From IMG/VR virus record IMGVR_UViG_2700989044_000001, positions 1-11,682 of that record: a stretch of 11,682 nucleotides of DNA, one strand, 5' to 3'. Positions 1,980 through 3,212 of this stretch are shown here, one piece after another; position 1 is the stretch's first letter, and each line of letters begins with the position of its first letter. Below the pieces are notes generated by a model. It was not told the origin of the DNA, made no database searches, and saw only the letters and a list, made by a program, of their open reading frames with translations. The position numbers and the translations under genes were made by a program. The stretch is from a virus. Taxonomy: Duplodnaviria > Heunggongvirae > Uroviricota > Caudoviricetes.

Positions 1980-3212
1980 ATGAAAAAATCAACGCTTAAA
2001 AATGGTTTGGAAATTTATACAGAACAGGTAGATTCTGCTAAGACAGTTACATTTAGCGTTTATGCTAAAGTTGGCTCGTACAACGAAAAAGAAAATTTTG
2101 GTATTTCACACTTCATTGAACATATGGTTTTCAAAGGTACAAATACGAGAAATTCGCAAGACATTATGGAAGAAATTGAAAACGTTGGTGGTTATGTAAA
2201 CGCGGAAACTAGTTTTGAACATACTAGATATTTCGCCACTGTACCAGCTGAAGAATGGAAAACTGCTGCAGATGTTATTACCGATATAGTATTTAACTCT
2301 ACGTTCCCCGAAGAAGAAGTAGATTTAGAAAGAACCGTAATACAGGAAGAGTTAAAAATGTATTCTGATGATTCTTCTTCTCATGTTACAGATATGTTAT
2401 TAATTGCTATGCATAAAAGTTATCCAGAAAGACAGACTATAGGTGGAACAATACAGACTGTTGCAGATATAACAAGAGAAGACTTAGTTAATTTTAAAAA
2501 CAAGTTTTATCAACCTAATAATTTATTTATAGTTGCTACAGGTAAAGTTAATCATGATGATATTGTTGAATTTATGAAGCAATTTGAAAACATTGAACAA
2601 ACAAGTGAAATCGAGAAAGAAGAGCAATTTGAGCCAGATATTTTAAGTTCAGATACAGAATCTTTATCAAGAAACATTGAACAATCTCATTTTACTTGGG
2701 GATTATTTGGCCCATCCTCTAACGACCATGATATTTTTGCAGTTGAAGTTGCAGCAGCAATATTAGGTGGTAGTTCAAGTTCTAGACTATACCAATTAAT
2801 TCGTGAAAAAAGAGGATTAGCTTATACTGTTAGTGTTTTTACTTTTGAAATGAAACAGAATAGTATAATATGCGGTTATACTGGCTTAGACGCAAGTAGG
2901 ATTGAAGAAGTAAAAGAGATAGTAGTAGAAGAATTTGAAAGATTAAGAAATGAATTAGTTAGTGATAGTGAACTAAATAGAGTGATAGCTTATTTAAGAG
3001 GTAAACACATAATTGGTTTAGAAAAACCTTCTTCTATAAACGGATACATCGGTAGTTCAATCATAAAGAATTTATCAACAAATCCAGATGATTATATTAA
3101 AGGTCTTGAATCAGTTACAAAAGAAGATATTAAAAAAGTGGCTAGAAAGTATTTTACGCCAGATAATTGGCAATTTGCTGAAATTACACCTAAAAACCAG
3201 GAGGTTAACTAA
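1980..3212 (+). CDS. M16B-family zinc metallopeptidase (insulinase/MPP-beta-like, YmxG/PqqL-like), 410 aa
   Basis: Inverted zinc motif HFIEH (2109-2123) in GISHFIEHMVFKGT, NAETSFEHTRY, distal Glu region ERTVIQEE, and C-domain ILGGSSSSRLYQLIREKRGLAY carrying the M16B Arg/Tyr pair. Start moved to ATG 1980 because AAGGAGG (1966-1972) is 7 nt upstream. Confidence 0.93.
   Translation: MKKSTLKNGLEIYTEQVDSAKTVTFSVYAKVGSYNEKENFGISHFIEHMVFKGTNTRNSQDIMEEIENVGGYVNAETSFEHTRYFATVPAEEWKTAADVITDIVFNSTFPEEEVDLERTVIQEELKMYSDDSSSHVTDMLLIAMHKSYPERQTIGGTIQTVADITREDLVNFKNKFYQPNNLFIVATGKVNHDDIVEFMKQFENIEQTSEIEKEEQFEPDILSSDTESLSRNIEQSHFTWGLFGPSSNDHDIFAVEVAAAILGGSSSSRLYQLIREKRGLAYTVSVFTFEMKQNSIICGYTGLDASRIEEVKEIVVEEFERLRNELVSDSELNRVIAYLRGKHIIGLEKPSSINGYIGSSIIKNLSTNPDDYIKGLESVTKEDIKKVARKYFTPDNWQFAEITPKNQEVN

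Follow-up and report, generated by a model that had tools for sequence, protein, structure and literature searches.

The gene gp2 occupies positions 1980–3212 on the forward strand of the window, i.e., the whole 11,682-nt stretch analyzed here, which covers bases 1–11682 of the 497,513-bp virus record IMGVR_UViG_2700989044_000001 (GC 29.9%). Its 410-aa product was predicted to be a catalytically competent M16B zinc metallopeptidase, namely an oligopeptidase of the Bacillus BHP/YmxG type. The intact catalytic residues, the enzyme class, the single copy, the conservation, the synteny and the phylogeny of gp2 were established. The record matched phage G (Lysinibacillus; formerly 'Bacillus megaterium') and was treated as this phage. 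The NCBI genome of phage G is arranged from terL (gp1, 1683 nt), with the portal as gp14, the head maturation protease as gp19 and the major capsid protein (MCP) as gp27 (PMC12484599). Because both the 1683-nt first gene and the gene order in the record (portal, protease and MCP at genome positions 12336–14282, 16840–17742 and 23289–24137) agreed with this numbering, the record was read as phage G, and the M16B gene is gp2 by counting. Our proposal, which is a tentative one, is that gp2 acts as a late, closed-chamber homodimeric oligopeptidase for the breakdown of free peptides, perhaps those arising from head maturation.

The open reading frame (ORF) of gp2 started with ATG at 1980, with the strong Shine-Dalgarno (SD) sequence AAGAAGGAGG upstream. 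Pfam detected Peptidase_M16 at residues 15–157 (1.7e-33) and Peptidase_M16_C at residues 164–338 (4.2e-37), and these matches and the AlphaFold2 model both gave two homologous alpha/beta domains in one chain, the arrangement of M16B. The preliminary description had reported an intact HXXEH peptidase with an Arg/Tyr (R/Y) pair, and every element of it was recovered. The zinc-binding and catalytic motif HFIEH (H44, E47, and H48; residues 44–48; positions 2109–2123) was followed by the segment ERTVIQEE (2328–2351), in which E117 and E124 lie; E124, as the third zinc ligand, is placed 76 residues beyond H48. This spacing was identical in all phage copies and equal to that between H50 and E126 in BHP (table in PMC12731061). 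The R/Y pair (R275 and Y282) was found in SRLYQLIREKRGLAY (2781–2825) by motif alignments, and its REKRGLAY segment, retained in all phage copies, aligned with REKRGLCY in BHP. Only GGSSSS preceded SRLY; this segment had the same length as in BHP and contained no insertion at the position where the alpha subunit of the mitochondrial processing peptidase (MPP) has its glycine-rich loop. The residues H44, E47, H48, E117, E124, R275, and Y282 were invariant across 30 aligned homologues and also in 12 more distant phage copies.

The closest sequence match of gp2 in the PDB was 3HDI, i.e., BHP (BH2405), with an E-value of 8e-58 and the motifs aligned without gaps, followed by the MPP-beta subunits. 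The AlphaFold2 model, which was based on a 30-sequence alignment, reached a pLDDT of 95.1 and a pTM of 0.90, and its top fold match was 3hdi_A (TM 0.92). In the model, residues 2–5 already formed strand 1 of the fold, so that gp2 itself carries no leader. A profile search detected one M16 and one M16_C locus in the whole 497.5-kb genome, and PHROGs contained no family for gp2. The R/Y pair marks nearly all M16 enzymes; the exceptions are MPP and the bc1 core proteins, in which a glycine-rich loop prevents full closure, and the prokaryotic R/Y-bearing M16B enzymes fit a closed-chamber 'peptidasome' class that requires closure for catalysis (PMC12731061). The hallmarks of the MPP type, a partner subunit and a glycine-rich loop instead of R/Y, were both missing: there was one M16 gene in the genome and in each relative, and R/Y was present. 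Judged from its sequence, gp2 belongs to the homodimeric BHP/YmxG 'peptidasome' class and not to the MPP type, because the R/Y pair is present, the loop position has no insertion when compared with BHP, and gp2 is the sole M16 gene. The sole gene, together with the HXXEH site and the R/Y pair, likewise suggested that gp2 works as a homodimer. The phage M16 enzymes were acidic (net charge −10 to −33), which would be compatible with basic peptide substrates.

The M16 gene was present as a single copy in all 16 of the distinct G-like records that could be checked, always directly 5′ of a sigma-like gene and inside the block from the large terminase subunit gene (TerL) to the portal gene. These records comprised 12 IMG/VR records reached via the prohead protease and further contigs or records reached by other routes, including the terminase. 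In each of the 12 IMG/VR records (100–504 kb), whose prohead proteases were at least 45% identical, exactly one M16 gene was found and was followed by the sigma-like gene. The relatives with enough sequence around the locus shared the order TerL, (sometimes inserted genes), M16, sigma-like gene, gp4, LysM protein, small gene, ~920-aa protein and portal. The position of M16 in this block was strictly kept in all of them, down to 34% identity, and HXXEH, the Glu at +76 and the REK.G..Y motif were retained in all phage copies. A protein search with gp2 yielded a graded series of homologues from 80% to ~38% identity, whose contigs reached 476 kb, and cellular M16B proteins formed a plateau below the phage series at 30–37% identity.

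The interval between the terminase and M16 genes varied in content among the relatives. Several of them contained a subtilisin-like S8 peptidase gene and an AdoMet-decarboxylase-like gene there (L009:7947-9972, L011:8565-9862, and the contig of P0024), one had a 5′-nucleotidase-like gene and another a gene for a SASP; phage G had only a 297-nt spacer. The terminase gene itself was interrupted in some relatives (L009:4305-7105; L020:10001-12405; L018). One relative showed an ORF with Hom_end_hint (intein or homing endonuclease) before the C-terminal piece of TerL, and in others the terminase match was stretched over ~2.4 kb compared with 1.7 kb.

A maximum-likelihood tree of 57 sequences, which included the comparison with host YmxG that the preliminary description had proposed, united the 19 phage copies in a single long-stemmed clade (SH-aLRT 100), which joined neither the Bacillaceae YmxG group nor any other phylum. 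Among the 185,579 species genomes scanned, none had a match to gp2 above 36% identity. Since the phage copies form a deep single clade and no cellular match exceeded that level, gp2 is an old acquisition under purifying selection, i.e., a vertically inherited core gene of the G-like megaphages and not a recent host copy. The possibility that gp2 is a host-derived auxiliary gene, which had also been raised, thus found no support as far as a recent capture is concerned. No GenBank phage was matched when the window was compared by megablast. Other M16 matches in 'phage' records were found in bacterial-looking DNA or unannotated gut fragments (that of MaAM05 was located among smc, scpAB, and uvrA), and they were not used. 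No publication connecting M16 enzymes with phage virions emerged from a literature search.

The second subject of the analysis is a set of short basic leaders on phage G proteins. The preliminary description had pointed out Arg/Lys-rich leaders on proteins encoded downstream of gp2, and all of them (MSRIKK, MTRLKK, MKKSRLKK, and MSRKRRL) were present, each behind an SD-like sequence; two of the four (MSRIKK at 4754 and MTRLKK at 9524) depend on TTG starts. Gene calling relied on a simple combination of ORFs and SD sequences, rather than on a trained gene finder, and gave 689 proteins with a length of 50 aa or more. Within their first 12 residues, 30 of the 689 carried the pattern [KRST]R[LIMV][IKLRSV][KRSN], compared with 1.7 expected from its internal frequency. 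KRL near the N-terminus was found 21 times vs. 1.2 expected, and KRLI eight times vs. 0.09. Anchored on the invariant Arg, the consensus was M-K-R-L-(I/K)-K-K-(S/A); its Arg-Leu core was invariant, the tags were basic, and the last position was Ser or Ala in 17 of 30 cases against a background of 11.6%. The codons differed between copies, indicating that the tag is conserved at the peptide level. Seven of the 30 tagged genes were located in the first 18.3 kb, the head module (binomial P ~9e-5), among them a small gene and an acidic scaffold-like gene that flank the prohead protease directly on its upstream and downstream sides, respectively. Besides the four leaders named above, tagged genes began at genome positions 11937, 16055, 17765, and 28218, among others. 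Many of the remaining tagged proteins were acidic and had an HGTS-type motif, and the tagged proteins as a whole ranged from 70 to 740 aa. A common short N-terminal peptide was therefore shared, beyond chance, by many unrelated proteins, as in capsid targeting, and these counts established the basic leaders as a genuine proteome-wide tag.

A separate candidate for head maturation was encoded at genome positions 16840–17742 (L004:5840-6742). It matched phrog_18299 'head maturation protease' (2.6e-19), and its FVDH and SMGC motifs were invariant. It was flanked by tagged genes, and a scaffold-like gene was just downstream in all relatives. Pfam Peptidase_S77 and Peptidase_S78 gave no match in the genome, and the protease was found via PHROGs. 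At equal distance it was better conserved than M16 (56% vs. 45% identity in one relative). gp2 is not a prohead protease of the HK97/T4 serine type, since it is a metallopeptidase, and it is another gene that has the features of a head maturation protease. The statements in PMC12484599 on whether the head maturation protease appeared in virion proteomics are conflicting. Within the protease domain there was an invariant five-Cys cluster (SMGCRC...CSxC...C), and the C-terminus carried an invariant NLPW(S/T) tail. Its conserved N-terminal sequence KTAxKVVKIAPKE ends in K-I-A, like the tag ends, and could be an autoprocessing site. The MCP N-terminus EYLISKA-LETEE also resembles the tag end; as a shared prohead-protease site it was set aside and kept as a lead only, because the whole segment was uniformly conserved in the orthologues and no cut site could be read. 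In T4, the prohead protease removes analogous tags. By this analogy, the prohead protease would be the more economical candidate for any tag removal in phage G.

The tags and M16 were compared across phages, as the preliminary description had proposed to check whether the peptidase co-occurs with RLKK-type leaders. Co-occurrence held for all G-like records, which had both, and every M16-bearing locus examined had tagged genes around the prohead protease. The distant but complete 379-kb genome G009 encoded 19 tagged proteins vs. 1.3 expected. In two M16-less genomes with remote prohead-protease homologues, G015 and G016, the MKRL-type pattern was at chance level only, and no shared N-terminal tag was found in G015. 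G016 (199,871 bp; L150-L159) had no M16 gene and only the remote prohead-protease homologue in common with phage G. Here, M-S-R-x-E-Q-L-x-K-L-A started at least 11 proteins around the protease (~107–143 kb, minus strand), compared with 0.16 expected. This tag resembles the phage G variants MSRLKKLA and MSRLRKLA and is longer and less basic. G016 thus has a related tag without M16, so that such tags can exist without the enzyme. The co-occurrence itself is confined to a single clade and, on the sequences compared, amounts to one evolutionary event.

The expression of gp2 was considered from the distribution of promoter motifs. A host sigma-A-like motif, GTTTACA-N17-TATAAT (spacer range N15-19, often with TG before the −10 element), was found in 90 upstream regions. 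These promoters clustered at genome positions 372–476 kb, which is probably the early-gene region, and the first 30 kb contained none. This lack of early-type promoters suggested late timing, and non-early expression of gp2 together with the morphogenesis genes would fit this pattern. Searching for k-mers in the regions that precede M16 and the head genes revealed no clear common late-promoter motif.

In the reading that we tentatively prefer, the homodimeric clamshell of gp2 would open, admit an unstructured peptide, shut fully and then cut it. The enzyme, which was predicted to be cytoplasmic, would degrade free short peptides during late infection, and the best candidate substrates would be peptides freed in head maturation, i.e., clipped basic tags and fragments of scaffold or propeptides. 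If the tagged proteins are cut at all, the primary cut would be made by the separate serine prohead protease, and gp2 would have a clearance role resembling that of PreP behind MPP. The preliminary description had named such a clearing of released peptides as its second option, which is thus still plausible. Several points weigh against this reading. The substrates and the cutting of the tags are matters of inference, as are the homodimer and the late expression, whose timing was deduced from the lack of early-type promoters alone. The place of gp2 in a co-directional gene block is weak evidence for function. The argument from enzyme class is not absolute, because some M16B enzymes (AlbEF and MPP) process precursors, and the acidity of the phage enzymes only slightly exceeds that of the Bacillaceae homologues. 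In addition, a 2025 multi-omics paper on phage G listed 'five individual proteases', and the M16 peptidase was not among them (PMC12484599).

Other explanations were weighed against this clearance role. A leader peptidase would recognize the basic M-K-R-L-I-K-K-(S/A) tag, as MPP recognizes Arg presequences, and remove it from virion or cargo proteins. Such a function is improbable, even though the basic tags are genuine and share an invariant Arg-Leu core, gp2 lies in the head block where seven of the 30 tagged genes cluster, and MPP-beta is a strong structural relative. The phage enzymes are also rather acidic, and the acidic residues with which MPP-beta binds the Arg at P2 appear, in an informal comparison with the yeast sequence, to have acidic counterparts in gp2. 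RPP, the M16B enzyme of Rickettsia, has a preference for basic peptides (table in PMC12731061). However, a fully closing enzyme with R/Y, without a loop insertion and without a partner, would be ill suited to clipping eight residues off folded proteins of 70–740 aa, and MPP presequences are far longer than the tag of phage G. The joint occurrence of tags and M16 in all G-like records including G009, and the lack of a G-type basic tag in the M16-less G015 and G016, would favor a leader peptidase, but this pattern reflects one phylogenetic event, and G016 carries both a related tag and a homologous prohead protease without M16. The removal of analogous tags in T4 by its prohead protease also speaks against it. 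The MPP-like trimming of basic leaders put forward in the preliminary description is therefore disfavored in view of the peptidasome class, the separate serine protease and the tag of G016. It seems similarly doubtful that the G-like megaphages have a two-enzyme, mitochondria-like 'presequence' system, in which a basic tag of the MKRLIKK type would load ~20–30 cargo or head proteins and gp2 would either remove the tag (MPP-like) or destroy the freed tags so that the loading site stays uncontested (PreP-like).

A serious rival, although less likely on balance, is that gp2 is unrelated to virion assembly and serves as a general or host-directed peptidase, which might recycle peptides to amino acids for the very large burst, destroy host signaling or defense peptides, or replace host YmxG in a sporulating host. 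The strictly kept position in the TerL-to-portal block argues against this, since typical auxiliary genes come and go, as does phage ClpP; so do the deep monophyletic clade, which speaks against recent host capture, and the absence of an early-type promoter. A general function would nevertheless agree with the many sporulation-related and auxiliary genes of phage G (PMC12484599) and with the behavior of prokaryotic M16B enzymes, which degrade many unrelated peptides and whose physiological substrates are mostly unknown (PMC12731061). The insertion of non-structural genes beside M16 in relatives (S8 peptidase, AdoMet-decarboxylase-like, nucleotidase, and SASP genes) and the fact that the nearest solved relative is a Bacillus YmxG-type enzyme point in the same direction. 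Phage ClpP was found in two of five near-complete G-like genomes (phage G, G000:187823-188368; and G009:339867-340403) and was absent from G002, G011, and G012; in this clade it is accessory and not core. The ideas that the tags are degrons for phage ClpXP, or that M16 acts behind phage ClpP, were rejected because ClpP is missing from three near-complete genomes with tags and M16; this result bears on phage ClpXP and not on host ClpXP. Hardly credible is a role of gp2 in maturing or controlling the sigma-like gp3 (cf. pro-sigma processing in Bacillus sporulation) or another regulator. The two genes are adjacent in all relatives examined, their stop and start abut in phage G, and the sigma-like protein has an N-terminal extension of 35–45 residues before its conserved core. 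However, the extension is acidic, differs between relatives in both length and sequence and is almost missing from one of them, unlike a conserved pro-sequence, and adjacency carries little weight where the whole block is syntenic. The known pro-sigma proteases also belong to other families.

The remaining features of the window were all on the forward strand. The TerL gene (gp1; 1–1683), assigned by library matches and by the length given for terL (PMC12484599), was followed immediately by a terminator-like hairpin with a T-run (1682–1718). The M16B gene started 297 nt 3′ of TerL, and after the hairpin ~270 nt of non-conserved spacer remained; the M16 gene probably opens a new transcription unit in phage G. 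The gap between TerL and M16 was only ~40–50 nt in two distant relatives, and an Rfam scan of the window found no match. The sigma-70-like factor gene (gp3; 3213–3839), whose start abuts the M16 stop codon, was the invariant downstream neighbor of M16 in all relatives. The gene for the LysM-domain protein with the leader MSRIKK extended from its TTG start at 4754 to 5851, behind an SD-like sequence. This ORF ended in NTRLKKK at an A-run, and the next ORF (TTG 5890; window 5827–6240) had no convincing SD sequence. A 930-aa protein (window 6287–9079) without a Pfam or PHROG family occupied the same position in all G-like relatives at 24–53% identity; it seems to hold internal repeats of the type 'IxxWIxxxxxxxINSxTYAS.YSFxELL'. 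Further downstream were the genes of a 135-aa protein with the leader MTRLKK (TTG start; 9524–9931) and a 72-aa protein with the leader MKKSRLKK (ATG start; 9952–10170), both with SD-like sequences upstream and with tags retained in the orthologues. The 5′ part of the gene for a 118-aa protein with the leader MSRKRRL (ATG start, SD-like sequence upstream) was located at 11566–11682 and continued to genome position 11922.

Head maturation in tailed phages is generally attributed to one serine protease. If the two-enzyme 'presequence' system considered above were true, an M16 metallopeptidase would be a dedicated virion-maturation factor in a tailed phage. A morphogenetic gp2 would represent a new accessory factor, a second, metallo-type peptidase kept throughout a megaphage lineage in parallel with poxvirus G1, and it would place the bacterial YmxG/BHP class, which is poorly understood, in a defined biological setting. 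If gp2 is a general peptide recycler, it would be an ordinary though unusually stable auxiliary gene. On present evidence, gp2 is a new phage-borne example of a known enzyme class, and a functional link to the tags is not the best explanation. Phage G is, as far as we know, the only cultivated megaphage, and gp2 and the tagged proteins are therefore accessible to direct expression and testing. The annotation of gp2 also makes a small correction to the five-protease list of PMC12484599.

Among known systems, gp2 is most similar to BHP, the YmxG-type enzyme of Halalkalibacterium halodurans, both in sequence (~31% identity) and in fold. The two share equal length, the HXXEH-76-E spacing, the SSRL...REKRGL.Y motif, the short GGS.SS segment and a single subunit type, and BHP needs complete closure for catalysis (PMC12731061). 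They differ in that the phage copy lies in a head-gene block, is only 30–36% identical to any cellular homologue, has its own long branch and is more acidic. MPP alpha/beta (1HR6-1HR9) has the M16B fold and the catalytic motif of its beta subunit in common with gp2 (E ~1e-38, TM 0.91), and it acts on N-terminal peptides that are basic and have an Arg close to the cleavage site. However, MPP is an alpha/beta heterodimer in which a glycine-rich loop replaces R/Y in the non-catalytic subunit; it never closes fully and thus clips presequences off whole proteins. PreP/Cym1 (M16C) offers a functional analogy only, as a closed-chamber HXXEH enzyme that destroys targeting peptides freed by another protease; it is a single chain of ~1000 aa from another subfamily, and tag cutting in phage G is only a proposal.

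The capsid targeting sequence of T4 and its protease gp21 resemble the phage G case in the short common N-terminal tag on unrelated proteins, which in phage G is clustered in the head module. Unlike the T4 sequence, the phage G tag is basic (MKRLIKK), has no LxE site and is known from genes alone, and T4 has no M16 enzyme. The poxvirus enzyme G1 (vaccinia G1L, MEROPS M44) shares its clan with gp2 and is likewise a viral HXXEH enzyme; its fold match to the gp2 model is weak but significant (E 1e-10 to 1e-6, TM 0.35–0.49). It is a very distant relative, belongs to a eukaryotic virus and is packaged into the virion core. G1 is required late in virion morphogenesis, beside the separate main maturation protease I7 (PMC4213562). 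By analogy, the pair of I7 and G1 would be an interesting precedent for a second, metallo-type maturation factor.

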